From Clostridia bacterium (GTDB lineage: Bacteria > Bacillota > Clostridia > Oscillospirales > Acutalibacteraceae), in contig JAFQLV010000013.1 in the NCBI GenBank assembly GCA_017396515.1, forward strand, positions 1,010 through 65,009: a stretch of DNA of 64,000 nt. The letters are read 5' to 3'. The position numbers were made by a program, and so were the translations under genes. This document shows, one piece after another, positions 2,993-60,458 of this stretch. Numbering within the stretch: position 1 is the stretch's first letter; every line of letters starts with the position of its first letter. A model generated the notes under the pieces. That model saw nothing but the letters and a program-made list of their open reading frames with translations. It was not told where the DNA came from and searched no databases.

Positions 2993-3030
2993 CAACGAAA
3001 CAGGGAGCAGTCTTGCCCCCTGTTGTGTTT

Positions 3031-6000
3031 TTAATAATGTGCCACACCGCAATCGCAGACGGCGTTTTTCTTGAAGAGCTTCTGGAAGAAGAGAATGAAA
3101 TTGAAGAAAAATTTTTTTATGCCGGATGCGTGGCAGTTGCAGCCACATTCGTCGGCTTTGTCATAGCCGCAAGAGGTGCACTTTGAGCCGTCAAAGGTGT
3201 GGCTATGTTCAACAAGCGCATAATAACTCAAATGTTCTGTCACAAACGTAGCATAATCGCCCTCAACCTTTGCACTCACGGATTCAATCGTACCATCTTC
3301 CTTATACCAATAAACCATGATATTATTTCTGTCATAACCTACTGGTATAGGTATCATAACTTTAATTTTTCCATTTGGTTGTGCTTCCTTGCCACCTTTA
3401 TAAAGAGTAATATTATAAAGTTTATATTGCTCTGACAATCCATTCAATACTTTATCAGCTTCTATAGCAACTTGATTATTTTCAGCAACAATATATGAAT
3501 GCAAAACATATTCGGGTGACAACTCTGTTTCAGGATTTACAACAACTCCGTTTGATGTATAAGCATCATCATCATTAAGAGGTGGATAAATCACAATCAA
3601 CGGTGCATTATAACTCTTTGAAAAATCGTCTGCTTGAGCAACAATATTCTGAGCATCATTGAATGCAAACATCATTTCAATTACTTTTCCTGTAGGAAGA
3701 ATATTCCAAAGAACAGACTCTGCCAAAGATATTCCAAATTCAAGATTAATTGCATCTGTTACAATTTTAACAATATCCAAATCAAGTTTTTTCATCGCTT
3801 CTGTAAACTCTGCAACATTAAGATTAATATTTTTATATGATATGTTTTTCGAAAGAGACGAAGCATATGTTTGCACTACTTGTATTAATCCAGATTCAAT
3901 TAAATCTTTAACAATACTTTTGCTCAAATCTTTTATCAAAGCACTTTTTTCAGACATTCCTATACTTGCAGAAACTGTTGAAAGTGCAACATTGGTTGTA
4001 TATTCAATCATATTAACAAGATATGCCAATTCATTTTCACTGCAATTATTCGTAATTACTACATATCCGTTTTGAGGAATTTCTAATTGAACATGGGTAT
4101 GTTTAGATATAGAATCACCTGTATAATAATACTTGTCACCAAAAAGCTTACCTAAGTCATAAATTGAGTAACCCAACTCAGCTATATTTTCAGTTAATGT
4201 TGTTTTGTATTCTTTATACGGTTCTAAAATTTCAAAGTCGTGAATTTCACCAATTGAATTGTAAGAAACCGCAACACCATAGTGATGCTTTGAATTATAT
4301 GCATTCATATTCACATAATAGTAACCGTTTTGTTGGGTATAGTTAAAGTAGTCAATACACAAACCGTTGTAATTATAAAAATTTGTTTGTCTGCCTTTTT
4401 GATATTCTTTTGAGGGCACATTATTGAAATAATATACATTCATTTTTGGGGTTGCAGTCAAAAGTACTGTAATATAAGCACCCGTCTCAGAATCACTTAT
4501 AGTGAGGTTTGTAACACCCTCTTTTTTTGCTTTTAACTCTAATGTAAAATAAGCGCCCTCACTATTAGTGTTTGAATTTGAAAAGACGACATCAAAAATA
4601 CCCGGGTTGTCAAAAGATAAGTTAAAAGTTTTTTCCTCATAAGTTTGTTTTCCATTTTTATAGAGAGCAACCCACAAAGGCAAAATTTCATCAACAGGAA
4701 TTGAATTAGAGGAATTTACTGATTCAACTTCAAGATAGCAATCTTCACCTTTTACTGTAACAGTACAACTTTCCGTAGTTCCGTCGGAAGCCGTGGCGGT
4801 AAGTGTAACTGTTCCAAGTTTTAATGCCTTTACATCTAATGTTAAAACATGATAGCCCTTTTCTCTATAATAGAAGCCACCGCTATCTGTGATTTTTAGA
4901 ATACTCTCATCGCTACAAGACCACTCAACATCTTCATAGGTCAAATTGTCAGAATACATTTTTGCGGATAATCCCGAGATTTTAAAATTGTTTTCATCAT
5001 GTAATAACATTGATGAACCTGTGTAAATATAATAATTGTTGCCGTTATCAAAAACAATTTCCGTCTCTTGGTCTTCCGGCTCATCAGTACTAGTTGAATT
5101 ATAATGAATATTAGGACTTCCATATATTTTTTTGTCTCCTATCATTTTTTCCCAATCTTCTTGTGTGCCTGCATAAAATATATCAGAAAAATTATAGCAA
5201 CCATCAAATGCATTTCCACCTATTTCAACAACTGTTTTTGGAATATACATTGTTGTCAAATTATTACAATATTGAAAAGCATTACCACTAAGCTCTTTCA
5301 CCCCTTCTTCTAATATGACATCCGTTATTTGATGATAACCTGAGAGGCATGAGCTTACTTGTTTTATTTCTTTAGGTATTACTATTTTTCCTGCTACTAA
5401 TTCATTACAAATGTAAAATTGTTCTGCAAAATACGTTGGACGATCTGGACCATAATTTGAAGAAATATTATACCATTCAGTCAATGTGCCCGAAAAATAT
5501 ACACTTTTTACACCAAAACATTCTCTAAACGCATATGTTCCCATTCTTTTTACGCTATTGGGAATATGGATAATTTCCAAGTTTTCGCATCCTTTAAAAG
5601 CAAAACCTCCTATTTCTGTAACCCCGTAAGGAATATAAATTTTTGTTAAACTTGTCATATCTGAAAAAGCGTAAGGCGTTATATAAGTAGTTCCTGAACT
5701 TATTGTAATACTAATATTTTCTGTCGGCTCGCCTTTATAGCAATAGCAAATATCGTTAATGTACACTACGCCGTCAGGTTGAGAATTGTACCATTTTGTA
5801 TGCAAAAATGCGCCTTCCCTAATTTTTCTCACACTAGTTGGTATATAAATATTTTCCAAATAATAAAAACTCATGAACGCATATGCACTAATAGATGTTA
5901 CTCCATCTTCGACAATTAAACTTTTAACATTATAGTTTAAATCCTTCCAAGGAGTTTCATATCTTGAAGTATAATTAGTCATTTCACCATTACCGCTTAT

Positions 6001-6198
6001 AAACAGTGTATCACCATCGCGATGCCAAGTTAAGTTTTCTCCACACTTCCCGCTATTTGCTCTCGCTTTACCACCAAAGCAGTTACTAAAATTAAATTCT
6101 GGCCACTCCAACCCTACAAGCCCTTGTAGCGGTGCACTTGTCAAGCATATAACCACAACAAGCAGAGAACATAAGATTTTTTTCATTGTCTTTCCCAT
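3031..6198 (-). CDS. Large surface protein: signal peptide, BspA-type leucine-rich repeats, Ig-like (Big_2-like) domains, Cys-flanked hydrophobic C-terminal tail
   Basis: Repeated I(Y/H)IP.SV..IG..AF..C units. LTATASDGTTESCTVTV is an Ig-like segment. GGAGG lies 9 nt upstream of the ATG at 6198 (MGKTMKKILCSLLVVVICL). The tail is CGCNCHASGIKKFFFNFILFFQKLFKKNAVCDCGVAHY. Confidence 0.8.
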   Translation of the reverse strand: MGKTMKKILCSLLVVVICLTSAPLQGLVGLEWPEFNFSNCFGGKARANSGKCGENLTWHRDGDTLFISGNGEMTNYTSRYETPWKDLNYNVKSLIVEDGVTSISAYAFMSFYYLENIYIPTSVRKIREGAFLHTKWYNSQPDGVVYINDICYCYKGEPTENISITISSGTTYITPYAFSDMTSLTKIYIPYGVTEIGGFAFKGCENLEIIHIPNSVKRMGTYAFRECFGVKSVYFSGTLTEWYNISSNYGPDRPTYFAEQFYICNELVAGKIVIPKEIKQVSSCLSGYHQITDVILEEGVKELSGNAFQYCNNLTTMYIPKTVVEIGGNAFDGCYNFSDIFYAGTQEDWEKMIGDKKIYGSPNIHYNSTSTDEPEDQETEIVFDNGNNYYIYTGSSMLLHDENNFKISGLSAKMYSDNLTYEDVEWSCSDESILKITDSGGFYYREKGYHVLTLDVKALKLGTVTLTATASDGTTESCTVTVKGEDCYLEVESVNSSNSIPVDEILPLWVALYKNGKQTYEEKTFNLSFDNPGIFDVVFSNSNTNSEGAYFTLELKAKKEGVTNLTISDSETGAYITVLLTATPKMNVYYFNNVPSKEYQKGRQTNFYNYNGLCIDYFNYTQQNGYYYVNMNAYNSKHHYGVAVSYNSIGEIHDFEILEPYKEYKTTLTENIAELGYSIYDLGKLFGDKYYYTGDSISKHTHVQLEIPQNGYVVITNNCSENELAYLVNMIEYTTNVALSTVSASIGMSEKSALIKDLSKSIVKDLIESGLIQVVQTYASSLSKNISYKNINLNVAEFTEAMKKLDLDIVKIVTDAINLEFGISLAESVLWNILPTGKVIEMMFAFNDAQNIVAQADDFSKSYNAPLIVIYPPLNDDDAYTSNGVVVNPETELSPEYVLHSYIVAENNQVAIEADKVLNGLSEQYKLYNITLYKGGKEAQPNGKIKVMIPIPVGYDRNNIMVYWYKEDGTIESVSAKVEGDYATFVTEHLSYYALVEHSHTFDGSKCTSCGYDKADECGCNCHASGIKKFFFNFILFFQKLFKKNAVCDCGVAHY

Positions 6199-6216
6199 TT
6201 TGTTTTTACCTCCAAA

Positions 6217-6269
6217 TATAAAAAGTGCGTCTGCAAATGAGACGCACTGCAAAAATGGTTCTCATTTGC
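6217..6269 (-). promoter_or_regulatory. Leader terminator hairpin plus a competing upstream complement, just before the RBS of the LRR surface protein gene
   Basis: The minus strand reads AGTGCGTC-tcatttgca-GACGCACT followed by TTTTTATATTT, 0-6 nt before GGAGG. GCAAATGAGA (rc of 6260-6269) is complementary to TCTCATTTGC (rc of 6233-6242), which covers the terminator loop and the edge of its stem. Confidence 0.4.
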
Positions 6270-8920: not shown

Positions 8921-8922
8921 GC

Positions 8923-9083
8923 AATTATGAATGAGGAATTATGAATTATGAATTATGAATTGCGACTGAAATTCTGCTAAAGGATAATAGCTACACGCAG
9001 AGATAATGAAGCGTCAGCTTCATTTCATGACCATCAGGTCATTTCATGCACTCAGTGCATTTCATGCCGTCAGGCATTTCATC
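8923..9083 (+). repeat. Structured intergenic element E1: AATTATG array, GCGAC junction, CGCAGAG box and four tandem hairpins
   Basis: Array AATTATG AATGAGG AATTATG x3 AATT at 8923-8961. GCGACTGAAATTCTGCTAAAGGATAA is homologous to the left arm of copies A/B/C. Hairpins span 9006-9077. Confidence 0.8.
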
Positions 9084-9093
9084 AAAACAGCAA

Positions 9094-9123
9094 CCCGACA
9101 GAGCAATCTGCCGGGTTTTGTTG
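9094..9123. terminator. Bidirectional terminator between the TSCPD gene/E1 and the 444-aa secreted protein gene
   Basis: CCCGACAG-agcaat-CTGCCGGG with TTTTGTTG downstream and an A-rich tract upstream. Confidence 0.65.
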
Positions 9124-9133
9124 TATGTATTTA

Positions 9134-10426
9134 TCAATAGTGTGCCGCACCGCAAGCGCAGACTGCATTTTTCTTAAAGAGCTTCTGGAAGAAGAGAATA
9201 ATTTTGAAGAAGAAGGCTTTTATACCGCCTGCATGACAGTTGCAGGAGCAAGGCTCGGCAGGCTTTTCAAAAGTATAACCACAGCCGTAGTCGCATTTGT
9301 AGTCGCCGTTGGTGTCTTTGTGAGGCAGCTTATCAACACGGTCTGCCTCGTAAGCATCACCGCACTCGCAGGTGTAAACTGTGTAGCCGTATGTTGTGCA
9401 GGTGGGTGCATAGACCTTTGTCTTATAGTCGTGCTTGTGATTTAAATTATTGATATCATTAATTTTTAATGCAGGGCGAACACCGAACTCAAGTCCATCT
9501 ACCCAAAAACAGTTCGTATAGCCGGAATCTTCAATATACCAATTTTTAGCTGTATCAATACCCGGAGTACGAAGATGCCAAGGAGATCTTTGGTCATAGC
9601 CGTAAGCCGGACCGGCATCATAGACTCCCTGACACTCAGCATAATCGCTGCTTTGTGCAATTAGATTTACATGACTAACGAAACCAAAATCGCTGTTTTG
9701 TGTATCTTCATAAGACAGCAGAAATATTTTGTCTTTTGTTTCATTTCTGCTTTCTGCAGGTTCTCCAGAACATACAACATCGTTATTAAGGGTAGTAATG
9801 GAGATTTCTTTCTTTTCATTATCCGTAAAAGCCGTATTATAGAAATCATCATTGAGCCATTTTCTTATTGAGCTTGTTTCGTAATCATTTGCATAGTTTT
9901 CATAATCAGGGTCGTTGAAACAGATGTATGCACCGTCATCAGCTGTTTTAAAATAAGATGTGTTGCTGAAAGCCTGTGTGTCAATAATCGTTTCACACAA
10001 CACAAAACCTGTTTCAGGGTCAAGAACACGCCACTCAATAGGCTCAAACTTAAACCAATAGGTCATGTTGACAAAATAACCGTTATCATCTTGTCTTGTA
10101 AAACCACCATTTCTGTATTCTATAAATTTAACACCGCGATATTTATTGCCGCCATATTCTACATCGATATATCTCATCCAAGACATTTGCATTACCGCCC
10201 CATCGAGATCCCAATAATAGTCATAGCTTGTCCAGTTTTCCCACGCAGGTGCAAGTGCACCAAGCTCAGCTATCAAGGCAAAATCTTTGACCTCACTCTG
10301 CGGATATGAGCCGAACTGAATAATGTCGCCCACCTTATATTTACCACCCTCAGCATAAGCCATAGGCACTGTGCAGGCTATCATAATAACCGCTAACACC
10401 AGACTTAGTAACTTTTTTGATTTCAT
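9134..10426 (-). CDS. Secreted protein (DUF6273-like N-terminal region) with Cys-pair module and Cys-flanked hydrophobic C-terminal tail
   Basis: Signal peptide MKSKKLLSLVLAVIMIACTVPMAYA after an AGGAGG RBS. GDIIQFGSYPQ and IEWRVLD motifs are present. The tail is CSCNCHAGGIKAFFFKIILFFQKLFKKNAVCACGAAHY. Confidence 0.75.
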   Translation of the reverse strand: MKSKKLLSLVLAVIMIACTVPMAYAEGGKYKVGDIIQFGSYPQSEVKDFALIAELGALAPAWENWTSYDYYWDLDGAVMQMSWMRYIDVEYGGNKYRGVKFIEYRNGGFTRQDDNGYFVNMTYWFKFEPIEWRVLDPETGFVLCETIIDTQAFSNTSYFKTADDGAYICFNDPDYENYANDYETSSIRKWLNDDFYNTAFTDNEKKEISITTLNNDVVCSGEPAESRNETKDKIFLLSYEDTQNSDFGFVSHVNLIAQSSDYAECQGVYDAGPAYGYDQRSPWHLRTPGIDTAKNWYIEDSGYTNCFWVDGLEFGVRPALKINDINNLNHKHDYKTKVYAPTCTTYGYTVYTCECGDAYEADRVDKLPHKDTNGDYKCDYGCGYTFEKPAEPCSCNCHAGGIKAFFFKIILFFQKLFKKNAVCACGAAHY

Positions 10427-10450
10427 AAGAAAACCTCCTAATTTCTTTTG

Positions 10451-10493
10451 TGTAACAAAATGTAACATAATTATTGTAACAAACTGTTACAAT
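10451..10493. promoter_or_regulatory. TGTAACA repeat cluster (candidate XRE operator) in a divergent intergenic region
   Basis: TGTAACA at 10451, 10461 and 10475, with inverted TGTTACA at 10485. The last two form the palindrome ATTGTAACA-aac-TGTTACAAT (10473-10493). Confidence 0.5.
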
Positions 10494-10513
10494 AAAGTCA
10501 AGGGGTGTTTGTT

Positions 10514-10717
10514 ATGAAAGGGCTGAAAATTGTAAGAAAATCACGAAATCTGAACCAACAAAAGGTTGCTATGGATTTAAACATTTCACGTGAAGCTCTT
10601 TCTCACTATGAAAACGGCAAACGGGAACCAAGCCTCGATATGCTCAATAAATTATCAAAATATTTTAATGTTTCAATCGACTACCTCATTAACGGTGAAG
10701 AATTTAAAAAGCAGTAA
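10514..10717 (+). CDS. XRE-family helix-turn-helix transcriptional regulator
   Basis: The sequence QQKVAMDLNISREALSHYENGKREPSLDMLNKLSKYFNVSIDYL is a classic Cro/C1 HTH. Confidence 0.8.
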   Translation: MKGLKIVRKSRNLNQQKVAMDLNISREALSHYENGKREPSLDMLNKLSKYFNVSIDYLINGEEFKKQ

Positions 10718-10754
10718 CATCAACTTTACACTGATGCTACTGCTTTTAGTTTTT
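10710..10754 (+). terminator. Terminator of the XRE regulator gene
   Basis: AGCAGTA...TACTGCT stem followed by TTTTAGTTTTT. Confidence 0.6.
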
Positions 10755-10757
10755 ATC

Positions 10758-10877
10758 AATTATTCTTGACGGACCGTCGGGGACGCCGGTCCCTACGCAT
10801 TTACTCTGCGGAAAGACACTCCCCTTCTCGGCAGAGTACGACGCAATTCATAATTCATAATTCATACTTCATAATTA
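10758..10877 (-). repeat. Structured intergenic element E2: AATTATG-type array containing the mgtC stop, GCGTCG junction and CCGCAGAG box
   Basis: The plus strand reads ...CTCTGCGGAAAGAC...GCAGAGTACGACGC AATTCAT x3 ACTTCAT AATTA (array 10845-10877). Confidence 0.75.
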
Positions 10878-11763: not shown

Positions 11764-11800
11764 AATTAATTCATAATTCATAATTCCTAATTCATAATTA
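11764..11800 (-). repeat. Solitary AATTCAT/AATTATG heptamer array upstream of zapA
   Basis: AATT AATTCAT AATTCAT AATTCCT AATTCAT AATTA. It is near-identical to the array at 46418-46452. Confidence 0.8.
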
Positions 11801-14335: not shown

Positions 14336-14833
14336 ATGCCAAAAAGACAGGACTATTTATCATGGGATGAATACTTTATGGGAGTTGCCATGCTTTCATC
14401 CTACAGAAGCAAAGACCCCAACACTCAGGTAGGTGCCTGCATCGTCAACGACAATAACAGGATTATGTCAATGGGCTACAACGGTTTCCCCACGGGCTGC
14501 AATGACGATGAGTTTCCTTGGGAAAGAGACGGGGATGCCTATGAGACAAAATATCCCTATGTGTGCCATGCTGAGCTTAATGCCATCCTCAACTGCAGAG
14601 GTGTAAATCTTGAGGGCTGCAGAATTTATGTTGCACTTTTCCCCTGCAACGAATGTGCAAAGGCTATTATTCAAAGCGGTATAAAAGAGGTTGTTTATCT
14701 CTCTGATAAATATGCAAACACTATGGGTACGCGTGCTTCAAAGCGTATGTTCACCGCTGCAGGCGTTAAAATGACAAAGCTCGAGCCGAAGAAGGCATCG
14801 GTGCTCATTGACTTTGATGAGAAGAAAATTTAA
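14336..14833 (+). CDS. dCMP deaminase
   Basis: CHAELNAI and PCNECAK zinc-binding motifs of the cytidine/deoxycytidylate deaminase fold. Confidence 0.9.
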   Translation: MPKRQDYLSWDEYFMGVAMLSSYRSKDPNTQVGACIVNDNNRIMSMGYNGFPTGCNDDEFPWERDGDAYETKYPYVCHAELNAILNCRGVNLEGCRIYVALFPCNECAKAIIQSGIKEVVYLSDKYANTMGTRASKRMFTAAGVKMTKLEPKKASVLIDFDEKKI

Positions 14834-14853
14834 TCAAAGCAGCAAGCCTTGAT

Positions 14854-15133
14854 AAAATGCAAAATTCAAAATTCAAAATGCAAAATTGCGGTCGCGGGCA
14901 CATTTCTGCCGATAAATAATCTTCTCCCGCAAAGTGAGTTGAGATAAAATACCAACTCACAAGATTATAAAAAATAAGGCAGGTCACTACCGATTTGGAA
15001 GTGACCTGCCGTTTGTTTTAAGATTGATAAGATTTGCCGTTTCTGAGCTTTATCTACGCGGAAAGAGTCTTAAGGTTAGTCAGTGGTAAAATCGCGACCA
15101 CAATTTTGCATTTTGAATTTTGCATTTTGCATT
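14854..15133 (+). repeat. Structured intergenic element, full copy A (AAAATGC arrays)
   Basis: Left array at 14854-14886 and TGCGGTCGCG at 14887-14896. CCCGCAAAG box, then terminator hairpin at 14978-15019 and GCGGAAAGAG box. CGCGACCACA at 15093-15102, followed by the inverted array to 15133. Confidence 0.9.
14978..15019 (+). terminator. Rho-independent terminator hairpin inside element A
   Basis: GGCAGGTCAC-13 nt-GTGACCTGCC followed by GTTTGTTTT. It lies downstream of dCMP deaminase. Confidence 0.7.
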
Positions 15134-15162
15134 AAAAAAGCGACTCCTCAGAGTCGCTTTTT
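15134..15162. terminator. Bidirectional terminator next to element A (serves the acidic zinc-ribbon gene)
   Basis: AAAAAA-GCGACTC-ctca-GAGTCGC-TTTTT. Confidence 0.8.
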
Positions 15163-15163
15163 A

Positions 15164-15607
15164 TTATTCTTCGTCTTCGATTTCTTCTTCTTCAATTTCG
15201 AACTCGAGAATTTCTGCACAAGCAGGACATTCTACCTTGCCGTCATCGTCGATGTCATCAAAATCGATGCAGATTTCTGCGCCGCAAGCGGGACAAACAG
15301 CTTCGATGCAATCATCGTCGCAGCAGTCACAGTCATCGTCACAGCAATCGCAGTCACAATCGTCATAATCATAAACGAATTCTTCAACCTCGCCGAGAGC
15401 TTCGTCGATTTCTTCGATATACTCCTCAAGCTCGTCAAGATCGTCATCGATATCCTCGATATCTTCTTCGAGATCGCTTATCTCTGAAGCCATTTCATCA
15501 AGAGCGTCAACGATAGCAGCAAAGAGCTTGCCTTCCTTTGAATCGTCATCGATGTCAAGGCCTTCCATAAGTCCTCTTAAATATGCAACTTTCTCTGATA
15601 CTGACAT
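15164..15607 (-). CDS. Highly acidic zinc-ribbon protein with an Asp/Cys low-complexity run (resembles CD1247 N-terminal-domain proteins)
   Basis: MSVSEKVAYLRGLMEGLDID start, the DCDCDCCDDDCDCCDDDC run, then CPACG...CPACA. The ATG at 15607 is preferred over the GTG at 15616. Confidence 0.6.
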   Translation of the reverse strand: MSVSEKVAYLRGLMEGLDIDDDSKEGKLFAAIVDALDEMASEISDLEEDIEDIDDDLDELEEYIEEIDEALGEVEEFVYDYDDCDCDCCDDDCDCCDDDCIEAVCPACGAEICIDFDDIDDDGKVECPACAEILEFEIEEEEIEDEE

Positions 15608-16417: not shown

Positions 16418-17269
16418 GTGATTACAATAAAAAAGCTTATTTGTGTTTTAGCCTTTCTGTCGGTACTGCTTACATTCTGTGCTTGCACAAAGGAAGACTC
16501 CCCGCATATAACCGCTGCGCCTGAGGAAACAACCACAACAAAATCTCTTACGGTGAGAGTGACCTTCCCCGAGGGTCTGACCCTTGTGCAGATTGCAGAA
16601 AAATTAGAGGAAAGCGAAGTCTGCAATGCCTCACGCTTTATAGCGTTGACAAACGATATGACTTATATTCAGACACTCCCCTACTCTTTTATAAATGAAA
16701 TTGAAAACAGACAGGAAAGGGCATTTATCCTTGAGGGATATATCTTCCCCGACACCTATGAGTTTTATCGCGGTGAAAGCGAAGAAAAAGCTCTCTCCCG
16801 CTTTCTTGACAACACAGAACGAAAGCTGACGGCAGAGTACAGACAAAGAGCCGCAGAGCTTGGCTACAGCCTTGATGAAATTATCACTCTTGCCTCAATT
16901 GTGCAGGAGGAGTCTTACACCAATGACAGTGTTAAAAATGTCTCAAGCGTCCTTCACAACAGGCTTCGCAGCCCCTCTTTTCCGCGCCTTCAGTGTGATG
17001 TTACCATTCACTATGTCAACGATTATATCACCGACTCGAAATTTCTCAGTGCCACTGACGGCTATGCCGAAAAATACAACACCTACAAGTGTGAGGGCTT
17101 GCCCGTCGGTGCAATTTGCAACCCGGGCCTCGCTTCAATTGAGGCTGCCCTTTACCCTGCCGAGACGGATTATTACTACTTTGTAACAGACAGCGATTGG
17201 GATTATTATTATGCCTCGACCTATGCAGAGCACAAGAAAAACTGCAATGCAGTGGGACTTGCGGGTTAA
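16418..17269 (+). CDS. mltG: Endolytic murein transglycosylase MltG (YceG-like)
   Basis: N-terminal TM segment, EGYIFPDTYEF, LASIVQEE and YNTY..GLP.G.I.NPG motifs. The start codon is uncertain (GTG at 16418). Confidence 0.85.
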   Translation: MITIKKLICVLAFLSVLLTFCACTKEDSPHITAAPEETTTTKSLTVRVTFPEGLTLVQIAEKLEESEVCNASRFIALTNDMTYIQTLPYSFINEIENRQERAFILEGYIFPDTYEFYRGESEEKALSRFLDNTERKLTAEYRQRAAELGYSLDEIITLASIVQEESYTNDSVKNVSSVLHNRLRSPSFPRLQCDVTIHYVNDYITDSKFLSATDGYAEKYNTYKCEGLPVGAICNPGLASIEAALYPAETDYYYFVTDSDWDYYYASTYAEHKKNCNAVGLAG

Positions 17270-17299
17270 TTATGAATTATGAATGAGGAATTATGAATG
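17268..17299 (+). repeat. AATTATG heptamer array forming the mltG/GNAT intercistronic junction
   Basis: AATTATG AATTATG AATGAGG AATTATG AATG overlaps the TAA stop at 17267-17269, GAGGAA at 17285-17290 and the ATG at 17297. Confidence 0.8.
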
Positions 17300-29805: not shown

Positions 29806-30139
29806 AATGCAAAATGCTAAAAAAATGCAAAATGCAAAATTGTGGTCGCGGGGAATTTTCTGCTGATAAGTAGTTTTCTCCCGCAAAAGGAGTGGGGACG
29901 AGATGGTAAGTCTGTAGATTATAATCCTCATCCGTCACTGCGTGACACCTTCCCCTTAACTCAAGGGGAAGGTATAAATAAGGCAGGTCACTACAAGTTT
30001 TCAGTAGTGACCTGCCGTTTGTTTTAAGATTGATGAGATTTGCCTCCTCTGAGCTTCATCTATGCGGAAAGAGGCTTAAGGTTAGTGGGCGGTGAAATCG
30101 CGACCACAATTTTGCATTTTGCATTTAGCATTTTGCATT
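29806..30139 (+). repeat. Structured intergenic element, full copy B (AAAATGC arrays, extra internal hairpins)
   Basis: TGTGGTCGCG at 29841-29850 and CGCGACCACA at 30099-30108. Terminator hairpin at 29982-30025. A 71-nt block (30011-30081) is identical to the reverse complement of 56692-56762. Confidence 0.9.
29982..30025 (+). terminator. Rho-independent terminator hairpin inside element B
   Basis: GGCAGGTCACTAC-9 nt-GTAGTGACCTGCC followed by GTTTGTTTT. Confidence 0.75.
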
Positions 30140-30143
30140 CAAA

Positions 30144-31870
30144 TTACCATCCGAAGCCGAAGTATTCGTTGAAGAAATCCTCAAAGCTGCTTGCACCGCC
30201 GTAGTAGTAATCGTTGCCGCCTGAAGGCATAGTTGTTGTTTCCTCCTGCTGTGACGAGCCCTTATCCTCAACGAGGGTGATTGTCACATCAAAGGTTTTG
30301 GTTTTATAGGTACGGTTATCAACTCTGCAAAGGGTGAGAGTGAGGGTGTCACCAACTGCACCTGTGTCAATAAGGTCAAGAAGCACGCTGGAATCGTCCA
30401 TATCCTTGCCGTTGACTGCTATAATAAGGTCGCCTACCTGTGCATCTGTATCCTTAAGTGAGCTGTCCTGAGAAATGCCTGCAATTACAAGTGATCCCTG
30501 AGGAAGACCCTTAATGGAAACAACAAGTGAATAAAGCTGATATGCACTTACGGGTGCATACTCAATGCCCAGCTTAGGTCTGTTAGGCACATATTTATAC
30601 TGAATGAGTGCATCTACAACAGGCACCGCAATTGATGTCGGCACCGCAAAGCCCATGCCCTCATACTCGGTTGAGGCTATCTTTGAGGAGTTGATGCCCA
30701 CTATCTGACCTGCCATATTGACCAGTGCACCGCCCGAGTTGCCCGGATTAATGGCAGCACTGTGCTGAATACAGGTCATTGTATAGGTTGCATCCACACT
30801 TCTGTCAATGGCTGAAACTATGCCGTCAGTAATTGAGCCGAAGAAGGCTGCACCGCCCGGGTTGCCGATAGCATAAATGGGCTCGCCTATTTTAAGCGCA
30901 GAGGAATCGCCTATTCGGCAAGAGGAAGTCCTGTTTCCTTAATTTTGAGCACACCTATATCTGTTCTGGTGTCACTTGCCACCATCTCTGCCTCAAAGCT
31001 TTTGCCGTTTTCAAGAAGCACACCGTAGGTGACACCGCTTTCGTTAATAACATGGGCACAGGTGACAACATAGGTATATTTGCCTGTTTCATCTGTTGCC
31101 CAGAGAACGCCCGAGCCTTCACCGTAAAGCTGACCGTTTTTATAGGTCATAACACCCACAACACTGGGACGAACCTTTTCAGCTATAACAATTGAATTAA
31201 TCTGTGACAGCTCCTCACTGCCCTGTGTGGTTCCGATTATGGGCTTGATTGTTGTGGGAGCTTCTGTGGTTGAAGTGTTTGCATCGGTTTTTCCCACATC
31301 GGGAGCACCGCCCGTAAACGCATTGACAATTGCAATAACAGCTATAACAATGCATGCCGCCACTATGCCTAAGGCAATCTTTTTACCGCTACCCTTCTTT
31401 TTGGGAGGCATATTGTTGCCCACCTGATAGTATGAATAATTCTGCTGTTGCTGATTAAAGGGAGGGGTCTGACCGTAGTGATTGAACTGCTGCGTGTTGT
31501 TAGGTGCAGCATAAGGGTTGAATGAAGGAGGTGTTTCTTTTGAGTCTGTCACCCTTTGGGCACCCACAGGCTCTGCCTTTACACTTTCCTGCTTGTTTCC
31601 TGCATCGGCATAAGAATTATACTCCTGCTGATTTGCACCATCGGAATAAGGGTTGTAATCGGAATAAACGCCTTGTTCGCCCTCTTTGAAATATCCCTCG
31701 TAATTCTTTGCATCTTCACCTGAAAAGCTTATTTCCTCACCTGAAACATTAGGGTCAGAAAAAATATCCGTGCTTTCATGAGCCTTAGCTTCATCTGCAG
31801 TGTCAGGGGCAATACCCTCGCTGTGCTCAGGCTCCTGTGAAGGATTGTAGTTTGTTTCGTTATCGTTCAT
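30144..31870 (-). pseudogene. htrA: HtrA/DegP-type serine protease with PDZ domain, split by a 1-nt frameshift near 30909-30913
   Basis: The upstream ORF ends ...DIGVLKIKETGLPLAE-TAG. The next frame continues GDSSALKIGEPIYAIGNPGG...INPGNSGGALV plus a PDZ domain. Only 2 nt (TA) separate the GAA and GGC codons. Confidence 0.75.
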
Positions 31871-56633: not shown

Positions 56634-56910
56634 AATGCAAAATGCTAAATGCAAAATGCAAAATTACGGTCGCGACTCCACCACCCGCTGACCTTAAGCC
56701 TCTTTCCGCATAGATGAAGCTCAGAGGAGGCAAATCTCATCAATCTTAAAACAAACGGCAGGTCACTTCCAATTCGGTAGCGACCTGCTGATGCATTATA
56801 ATCTACAGAGTGGGAATTTCATCCCCACTCCCTTTGCGGGAGAGGATTGCTTATCAGTAGAAATGTGCCCGCGACCACAATTTTGCATTTTGCATTTAGC
56901 ATTCTGCATT
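56634..56910 (-). repeat. Structured intergenic element, full copy C (inverted relative to A and B)
   Basis: The reverse complement aligns end to end with A/B. GGTCGCG at 56668-56674, CGCGACCACA at 56870-56879, hairpin at 56757-56788. Confidence 0.9.
56748..56788 (-). terminator. Terminator hairpin inside element C (slightly degenerate stem)
   Basis: The minus strand reads GCAGGTCGCTACCGAATTGGAAGTGACCTGCC followed by GTTTGTTTT. It lies downstream of ridA. Confidence 0.6.
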
Positions 56911-56913
56911 TAA

Positions 56914-60199: not shown

Positions 60200-60458
60200 G
60201 AGTGAGGAGTGAGGAGTTAGGAGTTAGTAGTTAGGAGTTAGGAGTTAGGAGTTGTGGTCGCGGGTTAACTCTATACTAACCTTAAACTCGTTGCCGCAAG
60301 CACAAAACTCGCAAGCGGAAAATTCCGTCGATCATAAAATGTGCTTTTAAATTGCATTATTTTGGCGGAATATAGGGTTCGTTTAAATAAGTTTAAAACG
60401 GATATAATCGGAGCGAAGCGACCCTTAACTCCTAACTCCTAACTCCAAACTCCTAACT
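60200..60458 (-). repeat. Variant element D with GGAGTTA/TAACTCC arrays between ilvC and ilvD
   Basis: GAGTGAG x2 and GAGTTAG-type x5 at 60200-60252. TGTGGTCGCGGG at 60253-60264. The CTAACCTTAA segment is shared with A/B/C. GCGACCC then TTAACTCC TAACTCC TAACTCC AAACTCC TAACT to 60458. Confidence 0.8.

Follow-up and report, generated by a model that had tools for sequence, protein, structure and literature searches.

What is the 280-nt non-coding unit at positions 14854-15133 of a 64,000-nt stretch of Clostridia DNA (assembly GCA_017396515.1, contig JAFQLV010000013.1; Acutalibacteraceae), and what would such a unit do at the boundary between two genes? A preliminary description of this stretch, which we call the window, had read the unit (copy A) as a modular non-coding foldback repeat and likened it to BOX, RUP and Correia elements; that reading is upheld here. 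Copy A belongs to a real, previously undescribed cassette family of uncultured gut Clostridia. In the following, we describe the anatomy and distribution of the family, the inversions of its interior between strains and the strong enrichment of arrays with a period of seven that goes with it. With a probability of about 0.5, we take its members to be lineage-restricted, non-coding foldback cassettes that lie just after stop codons, form 3' ends or terminators, and have arms that drive inversion and exchange.

Architecture of copy A

Copy A is laid out as two mirror-image ~41-bp arms around two unlike ~80-nt modules and a strong GC hairpin. Its parts are as follows.

14854-14886, + strand: left (entry) arm of 4.7 heptamers AAAATGC/AAAATTC, the mirrored part running from AATGC at 14856
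14887-14896, + strand: left core TGCGGTCGCG, the inner end of the terminal inverted repeat
14897-14977, + strand: left module, with TTCTGCCGATAA, CCCGCAAAG and the variable hairpin GTGAGTTG/CAACTCAC
14978-15019, no strand assigned: central GC hairpin GGCAGGTCAC/GTGACCTGCC with a T-run (-26.3 and -24.5 kcal/mol)
15020-15092, + strand: right module, with TTAAGATTGAT, GCGGAAAGAG and CTTAAGGTTAG
15093-15133, - strand: right core CGCGACCACA (15093-15102) and inverted heptamer arm, the two arms being identical at 31/35 positions

Each motif that the preliminary description had placed in this interval is present where it was said to be. For the core TGYGGTCGCG, in which one half of the palindrome GGTCGCGACC is included, 0.09 occurrences are expected in the window; six are found, a number reached by 0/100 shuffles. 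Folded as RNA, copy A has a predicted energy of -114.9 kcal/mol compared with -57.7 kcal/mol for shuffled sequence (z = -12.7). On the + strand, the central hairpin has the U-run GUUUGUUUU, which does not vary within the family; in copy A, the - strand has one too (UUAUUUUUU). Directly 3' of the GGCAGGTCAC...GTGACCTGCC hairpin stands GTTTGTTTT, followed by the second module. A view of the two modules as the halves of one decayed perfect palindrome was rejected, as the left module compared with the reverse-complemented right module gave z <= 1.6 relative to shuffles.

Copy A is itself bracketed by hairpins of its neighbours. On the right, a bidirectional terminator at 15135-15162 (AAAAAGCGACTCCTCAGAGTCGCTTTTT) belongs to an acidic 150-aa open reading frame (ORF); on the left, a T-less hairpin at 14833-14853 lies directly 3' of the deaminase stop codon, and its loop and stem differ among strains.

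Further copies and their genomic context

Full copies, a variant, half units and lone arrays are found elsewhere in the window.

29806-30139, + strand: copy B, a full element oriented as A, with two extra mini-hairpins (29992-30016) before the central hairpin
56634-56911, - strand: copy C, a full element with its interior reversed on the + strand with respect to A and its central hairpin at 56757-56788
60200-60458, - strand: variant copy D, whose arms are GGAGTTA/TAACTCC, with TGTGGTCGCG at just one of its sides and a right-type module
8923-9110, + strand: half unit after the TSCPD gene, with an AATTATG array, a TTGCGAC junction, TTCTGCTAAAGGATAA, three 18-nt mini-hairpins and a terminator
10758-10877, - strand: half unit from the mgtC stop, with an AATTATG-type array whose last unit contains the mgtC stop codon, a TTGCGTCG junction and the right-type box CTTTCCGCAGAG
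46337-46451, - strand: hybrid unit; its AATTCAT array directly adjoins the stop of ORF 46453-48381 and is accompanied by a right-type module and by another array (AGTGCAG, 46337-46368) that does not match it
54806-54898, + strand: armless left-type module with the family GGCAGGTCAC hairpin and T-run, from the stop codon of ORF 53072-54805
11767-11799, + strand: lone AATTCAT array in the zapA 5' leader, 19 nt before the ATG
17268-17298, + strand: lone AATTATG array that makes up the whole yceG-GNAT spacer; the stop codon, a GAGGAA unit and the start codon that follows all fall within it

B and C had been put forward as full relatives and indeed align with A from end to end; D, put forward as a variant, shares the core and right module with A and differs in its heptamers (GGAGTTA). 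The 'fixed grammar' ascribed to these units fails for orientation, the interior of C being inverted relative to A and B (C is forward relative to the upstream RidA gene on the - strand). Related pieces are present at all four sites that had been called partial versions. Most of them are better described as half units, built as an array or arm, a TTGCG-type core-like junction, a module and a terminator, with mostly AATTATG/AATTCAT as the heptamer, and the piece at 54806-54898 has no arms at all. Tandem Repeats Finder gives period 7 at every site for which a heptamer array had been listed; the two lone arrays (11767-11799 and 17268-17298) were missing from that list. In a related metagenome-assembled genome (MAG), the orthologue of the zapA leader carries a right-type module and a TTCCGAA array.

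The window is ordinary chromosome, with zapA, a U32 peptidase, dCMP deaminase, EF-P, yceG, NrdR, ArgRS and ilvBNCD, together with two-component systems and glycoside hydrolases. The genes on either side are convergent for copies A and B and co-directional for copies C and D. The neighbours of C are RidA and an extracytoplasmic function (ECF) sigma gene on the same strand, and D sits between ilvC and ilvD, inside the ilv operon, where it is without the strong terminator.

The statement that the unit matches no known family also stands after wider searching. Rfam 15 gave 0 matches at gathering thresholds over the whole window and, at E<=10 over 14800-15200, chance matches only, the best at 24 bits against a threshold of 100 bits. 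Two element patterns found no match in viral contigs. In phage and plasmid collections searched with blastn, only the heptamer array was matched, the plasmid matches being AAAATKC-type arrays in Nostoc and Aulosira. Searches of full-text literature for this architecture, for its host family and for the motifs as literal strings turned up no description. Neither transposase nor integrase had been seen beside the unit, and a Pfam scan of the ~53 window ORFs detected no transposase, recombinase, integrase or invertase domain and no IS200/RAYT-like match; the window holds no tRNA gene, and no transposase or recombinase was present in any locus flank examined. The central-hairpin pattern GCAGGTCRC-N8-16-GTGACCTGC was abandoned as a metagenome probe; it is too unspecific, and returned 120 unrelated loci of which none was element-like by blastn.

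Arms built in a register of seven

With the core used to set the register, A, B and C have the arm sequence AATGC AAAATGC TAAATGC AAAATGC AAAAT TGTGGTCGCG, and in most copies left and right arms are 86-94% identical. The heptamer type varies among loci, yet it is mirrored within each element, and variant units are mirrored at the same position in both arms (AGTGCAG in L003 and AAGTGC in L005; loci from other assemblies are numbered with the prefix L). These mirrored variants and the shared register show that the arms are defined ~41-bp terminal inverted repeats, internally periodic at 7 nt, and are not microsatellites of open-ended length.

The density of period-7 arrays is 0.19-0.22 per kb in the window and in array-bearing relatives; unrelated metagenomic DNA (715 kb) has 0.003 per kb, which makes the enrichment ~60-fold. 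In the 64-kb window, 12-13 such arrays were counted. No arrays of period 5, 8 or 9 were found in the window or related loci, and the single array of period 6 lay outside the window. At least six unrelated heptamers are in use (GCAAAAT, GCAGAAT, GGAGTTA, AATTATG, GGGACTA and AGTAGTC), and at one orthologous site the heptamer has been switched, from AATTCAT in the window to GTTTTGC in L131 or the reverse. Array copy number varies among strains, with expanded arrays in L153 and L156 at the site of copy B. In small samples, period-7 arrays are present in the window species and in the P0051 and P0083 species, and none was seen in three relatives (L171, L172 and the P0073 species) over the few kb covered.

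The arrays hold a consistent position with respect to genes. Nine of 13 window arrays start 0-42 nt 3' of the stop codon of the gene reading into them, six of these within 7 nt, and all nine have the 'entry' polarity, in which the array is followed by TTGYG and then by a module. The others either form 'exit' arms or closely precede a start codon. A role for the heptamers in supplying stop codons in three frames was considered and set aside as a general rule, being true of AATTATG, GGAGTTA and GGGACTA and false for AAAATGC and GCAGAAT.

Inversion and exchange at occupied sites

A strict pattern consisting of the right module and core was scanned against one genome per species for 185,579 species and found only six loci in three MAGs, two of them Acutalibacteraceae and one a 'Clostridia bacterium' from roe-deer caecum. 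By their matching flanks, these loci include the site of copy B (L002, with GCAGAGT-like arms) and that of copy A, between the deaminase and the small acidic ORF (L003/L128, with flanks ~90% identical to the window; arms GCAGAAT/GCAGAGT in L003). Occupied orthologous sites in relatives that are ~90% identical indicate that the sites are long resident and that the heptamer has changed in step on both arms. The preliminary description had let its case depend on the family being new and on copies recurring beyond this genome; no described family matches, and copies are kept at the same sites in related genomes.

Strain loci were retrieved by exact look-ups of the flanking proteins in other assemblies, with the NUDIX gene serving for locus B. 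At locus A, the site of copy A, all same-species strains and the ~90% identical relative are occupied, and in more distant relatives the spacers are rearranged or replaced. Three strains with flanks 97.5-98.8% identical to those of the window (L127, L130 and L132) have the interior inverted at this locus, as does L128, which is more distant. Even after re-orienting, the interior is only 86-88% identical to that of the window. In L130, the first ~45 nt beside one core correspond to the window's left module, now on the opposite side, and the relocation of this segment identifies the event as a true inversion. L133 has the window's left half at locus A joined to a different right half.

At locus B, most strains carry the forward orientation and L153 is inverted. 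The right module of L153 matches that of L150 with three differences and its left part is A-like; L150 in turn has a duplicated arm and core. At locus C, which lies between co-directional genes, all 5 assembled variants have one and the same orientation. Replacement of the interior at locus C in L138, L141 and L144-146 was considered and rejected, as L193 shows a ~90-nt insertion in the left arm with the cassette continuing behind it.

Inversion extends to a second family. More distant relatives were reached via deaminase homologues and, in a species with an 83% identical deaminase, the post-deaminase site holds a sister family with arms (GGGACTA)n...(TAGTCCC)n. Its interiors are unrelated to those above and share no core, and a central hairpin has T-runs on both sides. 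Comparison of L175 with L177 reveals a clean inversion of the 126-nt interior, 96.8% identical after reverse complementation, between flanks that are 98-99% identical; other strains have different interiors enclosed by these arms. Thus, at three loci in two element families, near-identical strains carry opposite orientations of the interior. In a species at 81% deaminase identity, (AGTAGTC)n forms the 5' arm of a small terminator hairpin with the loop GATGCGGATAACC.

Terminator, RNA structure and promoter predictions

The built-in terminator that had been proposed is recovered as a prediction from hairpin energy and U-runs. The central hairpin has a stem of 11-13 bp, a calculated energy of -20 to -26 kcal/mol on either strand and z of -5 to -8, and GUUUGUUUU follows on the forward strand in all window copies that have the hairpin, so that the GC stem-loop and U-run of an intrinsic terminator are both present. 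Beyond this, RNAalifold applied to 13 distinct copies predicts only the paired arms and cores, the central hairpin and short helices. The variable hairpin pairs through differing sequences, as GTGAGTTG/CAACTCAC, GAGTGGG/CCCACTC or GAGTTGG/CCGGCTC (the last with G-U pairs). A strand-specific RNA structure was rejected on the same 13 copies, with consensus energies of -48.3 vs -48.6 kcal/mol and covariation terms of -0.57 and +0.31, approximately zero.

The cores (TTGYGG) were also examined as sigma-70 -35 elements paired with a GATAAN -10. As a general feature this candidate failed: the spacing is 19 nt in A, B and C, and a promoter scanner scored at background. The sole promoter-like match inside copy A is weak and at background level, and a good match is given only by the AATTATG half unit at 8923 (TTGCGA-17-GATAAT).

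A proposed 3'-end cassette with recombining arms

The best-supported function would be that of a 3'-end or terminator (insulator) unit between genes. Because the arms are inverted repeats, a transcript arriving from either neighbour meets the same arm, then a module, then the hairpin. This arrangement would explain why full units lie between convergent genes and half units behind single genes, and it would explain the free orientation in convergent contexts, with flips at three loci, alongside the constancy at locus C. It would likewise explain copy D, which sits inside an operon and would have lost its terminator.

The arms would in addition act as recombination substrates, with inversion tolerated between convergent genes and not between co-directional ones. 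Arms acting in this way would account for the inversions, for the mosaics between paralogues, for the mirrored evolution of the two arms and for an interior that diverges several-fold faster than its flanks. Complementarity of the arms could be kept by gene conversion or template switching between them, and the arrays may grow and shrink via replication slippage in a 7-nt register. In any read-through RNA, the arms would pair as a ~40-bp duplex, a plausible target for RNase III as in Correia/NEMIS elements.

Several points weigh against this proposal. Terminator function is deduced from hairpin energy and U-runs. On the reverse strand the U-run is good only in A, being moderate in B and poor in C, so the predicted terminator is not bidirectional in every copy. 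A terminator role does not account for the blocks conserved in the two modules, among them TTTAAGATTGAT and CTTAAGGTTAG, which are invariant in 13 copies. The orientation rule derives from few independent haplotypes, with ~5 at locus A, 6 at locus B and 5 at locus C. The exact period of seven, the switching of heptamers at a fixed site and the colonisation of new sites are left unexplained, and the elements could have originated by transposition.

Alternative explanations

Transposition is the core of the first alternative, in which the cassette is a MITE (miniature inverted-repeat transposable element), the 41-bp arms are transposase-binding ends mobilised in trans from elsewhere in the genome, and inversions and mosaics are secondary. 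Terminal inverted repeats of defined length are indeed common to A, B and C, there are many copies in 64 kb, and contigs of other assemblies often end at the element or break inside it. Half units are present in some strains and absent from others, namely one of ~120 nt in L130-L132, upstream of mgtC, and one of ~160 nt in L141/L142, where it separates DUF815 from RidA; neither has clean boundaries. A separate ~90-nt hairpin element has inserted in the arrays, possibly with a 5-bp duplication. The marks that insertion should leave on the cassette itself are missing: outside their arms, A, B, C, L003, L005 and L130 have no consistent direct repeat that could be a target-site duplication, and no clean empty site was found. 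Occupation of the same sites across ~10% nucleotide divergence counts against recent insertion, heptamers that differ among loci, and even at one orthologous site, are hard to reconcile with one sequence-specific transposase, neither a transposase nor a parent element occurs in the 64 kb, and the flanks examined contain no transposase. We consider a MITE possible and, on balance, unlikely.

A programmed switch (inverton) would place the emphasis on the flips themselves: a dedicated site-specific recombinase encoded elsewhere would act at the core or arms, turn the interior over and give phase-variable control of the neighbouring genes or of antisense transcription. Trans-acting invertases serving many dispersed sites occur in Bacteroides and Clostridioides, and the core, half of the palindrome given above, is present in all copies as a potential recognition site might be; near-identical strains with opposite orientations at three loci, in two families, are what such a switch would produce. 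Nevertheless, the interior terminator is predicted to work at least partly both ways, with some asymmetry between the invariant forward and the variable reverse U-run, no convincing promoter is found, and flips occur where their effect should be small, between convergent genes that have their own terminators. Orientation follows sequence haplotype instead of varying freely. One recombinase specificity would not serve both the window family and the sister family, which has different arms and no shared core, and no recombinase gene lies nearby. An inverton therefore appears rather improbable.

A bolder form of the recombination proposal is that the heptamer arms are sites of a dedicated DNA-rearrangement system, working in a 7-nt register, that inverts, exchanges and seeds small regulatory cassettes, such as terminators and modules of untranslated regions, at gene boundaries as a 'shufflon for intergenic DNA'. 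The same kind of machinery could underlie cyanobacterial arrays of short tandemly repeated repetitive (STRR) sequences and heptamer-hairpin insertions. We offer this as a conjecture at long odds; if it were true, the gene that tracks period-7 arrays across Acutalibacteraceae would lead to a new class of recombinase or template-copying enzyme.

Much less probable is that the arrays are platforms for a lineage-specific nucleic-acid-binding protein that reads the untranslated regions of mRNAs in a 7-nt register and exerts post-transcriptional control, the remaining parts of the cassette being secondary; this role could coexist with that of a 3'-end cassette. Arrays do stand directly after stop codons or before start codons (zapA, GNAT and mgtC in L130), enrichment is confined to period 7, and the like placement of TAACTGA repeats upstream of starts prompted the same proposal (PMC4679880). 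Sequence-specific recognition is hard to square with at least six unrelated heptamers that can be switched at one orthologous site, and no candidate protein was identified.

An RNA gene, whether one ~280-nt multi-stem RNA closed by the arms or two convergent small RNAs running from core to shared hairpin, would suit the very stable predicted fold, the variable hairpin that keeps pairing despite sequence change and the invariant blocks in both modules, but is highly improbable given equal consensus energies on both strands with covariation near zero, no Rfam match, no convincing promoter at the cores, a variable orientation with respect to neighbouring genes and an interior 86-88% identical between flanks at ~98%, the opposite of purifying selection.

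Relation to known repeats

Nearly all well-studied small interspersed repeats come from Proteobacteria, Neisseria, streptococci and cyanobacteria, where they shape transcription boundaries, mRNA stability and genome rearrangement. The cassette resembles Correia elements, BIMEs, REPINs and cyanobacterial heptamer hairpins and is best read as belonging to none of them, with no sequence relative outside its clade beyond the heptamer array.

Compared by description, the closest functional analogy is with the Correia/NEMIS elements of Neisseria, which are likewise small, non-coding and intergenic, with terminal inverted repeats and many copies. Correia/NEMIS elements have arms of ~26 bp, an IHF site and target duplications of TA; they are often transcribed together with the adjacent genes, can terminate transcription and yield RNase III substrates when their arms pair. 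Their arms are not tandem heptamers, however, they belong to another host phylum, and they show neither interior inversion nor heptamer switching. Invertons, the invertible promoters or terminators between inverted repeats of gut Bacteroides and of Clostridioides difficile cwpV/flgB, share with the cassette a segment of ~130-270 bp between inverted repeats and the occurrence of both orientations at one locus (here between strains). The cassette differs from them in its far longer, repetitive arms, and it has no evident promoter or orientation-specific terminator and no invertase nearby.

Heptamer repeats have a history in cyanobacteria: Mazel in 1990, Costa in 2002 and Elhai in 2008 are said to have described STRR sequences, Nostoc heptanucleotide hairpins and nested small dispersed repeats. 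As in the Nostoc hairpins, inverted tandem heptamers form arms around an interior in the cassette, and small hairpin elements are inserted in arrays. A direct example is the Nostoc sp. PCC 7120 plasmid pCC7120alpha (213951-214190; L157), in which inverted (AAAATTC)n / (GAATTTT, GCATTTT)n arms enclose a ~140-bp interior containing a direct repeat of GGGGGCTTGTACCCA; the arm architecture is that of copy A and the heptamer is almost identical. The window arrays, being numerous, intergenic and made of tandem 7-nt units, have the properties by which STRR sequences are recognised. The two groups are nevertheless from different phyla (Clostridia vs Cyanobacteria) and have unrelated interiors. To our knowledge, the TGYGGTCGCG core, the fixed ~41-bp arm, the interior of two modules and a terminator, and inversion between strains have not been described for the cyanobacterial repeats, and we know of no protein associated with the heptamer arrays of either lineage.

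REPINs pair two copies of a ~20-nt GC-rich palindrome in a ~100-nt doublet, and a RAYT (IS200-like) transposase gene with REPs on both sides is linked to them (PMC3116915). BIMEs and REPINs are similar to the cassette in being extragenic and hairpin-forming, in building mosaics of modules, in occupying 3' ends and convergent spacers, and in encoding no enzyme of their own (PMC3116915). In contrast to REPINs, the cassette has AT-rich heptamer arms with a 10-nt core and a ~200-nt interior with its own terminator, and there is no RAYT-like gene in the 64 kb. Direct repeats of TAACTGA lie within a few nt of coding-sequence boundaries, mostly upstream of starts, in Beggiatoaceae, cyanobacteria and Bacteroidetes (MacGregor, 2015; PMC4679880). 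They share with the window arrays a short heptamer array at gene boundaries and a patchy phylogeny, and the lone arrays at 11767-11799 and 17268-17298 fit this pattern. The cassette, in contrast, has inverted pairs of variable heptamers lying mostly downstream of stops, compared with single arrays of one conserved heptamer (PMC4679880).

Taken as proposed here, the family from uncultured gut and rumen Clostridia joins, in an unusual combination, heptamer arms that change and stay complementary, an interior that inverts and recombines, and tight placement at stop codons with a predicted terminator. It offers an accessible second lineage for asking why seven is the favoured unit length of bacterial tandem repeats, and a search by phylogenetic profile for the enzyme responsible is feasible given its patchy occurrence among close relatives. 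The cassettes also break short-read assemblies and constitute strain-level structural variation that metagenomic pipelines may misread.

Other small elements and gene variants

There are two further kinds of small repeat. A ~90-nt three-hairpin element (GTCAAAAC...GTTTTGAC, CTCCCC-TTTCA-GGGGAG and GGTGGCACC...GGTGC) stands inside heptamer arrays at L193 1040-1130, downstream of mgtC in L162, L163 and L169, and after RidA in L138, L141 and L144-146. Both of its orientations occur, two different loci and arrays of two different heptamers contain it, and at the mgtC site it has ATTCC on both sides; it has the look of a separate small mobile element for which the arrays are targets. The second repeat type has units of ~18 nt, each composed of a constant CATTTCATG/TTC and a short hairpin, and occurs at 9021-9082 in the window and at 1040-1150 and 1520-1630 in L138. 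Its stems vary but stay complementary (ATGACC-ATCA-GGTCAT, ATGCAC-TCA-GTGCAT and ATGCC-GTCA-GGCAT). In L138, two inverted arrays of these units flank a 23S_rRNA_IVP-family gene in the ilvC-ilvD spacer, instead of copy D. In L141/L142, a block of ~160-180 nt with ~18-nt units lies between DUF815 and RidA, possibly with a TAAAG duplication.

The interval 8921-10877, between the TSCPD gene and mgtC, is a swap site between inverted AATTATG/AATTCAT arrays. Its cargo in the window is a DUF6273 gene and an XRE-type helix-turn-helix gene; in other strains of the same species (L162/L163) it is a gene for a 275-aa protein and an ECF sigma factor, and in L128, a related MAG, the two half units stand adjacent without cargo. 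Immediately upstream of the mgtC ribosome-binding site, L130, L131 and L132 (~1150-1270) carry a half unit of ~120 nt with AATGAAT/GGTGAAT heptamers and TTGCGGGGAGC..., in place of which the window has TTTTATCATTAT.

Two observations concern genes of the window. The HtrA-like serine protease gene (30144-31870, - strand) is split into ORFs 30911-31870 and 30144-30797 in different frames, the reading being open through to 30920; in other strains it is a single gene of 575-576 aa, and the split in the window is a frameshift or sequencing error. A 115-nt direct repeat, 83% identical, links 3028-3142 and 9131-9245, the 3' ends of a BspA-type leucine-rich repeat gene (3031-6252) and of the DUF6273 gene (9134-10468), which suggests that the two predicted proteins have a common C-terminal segment.

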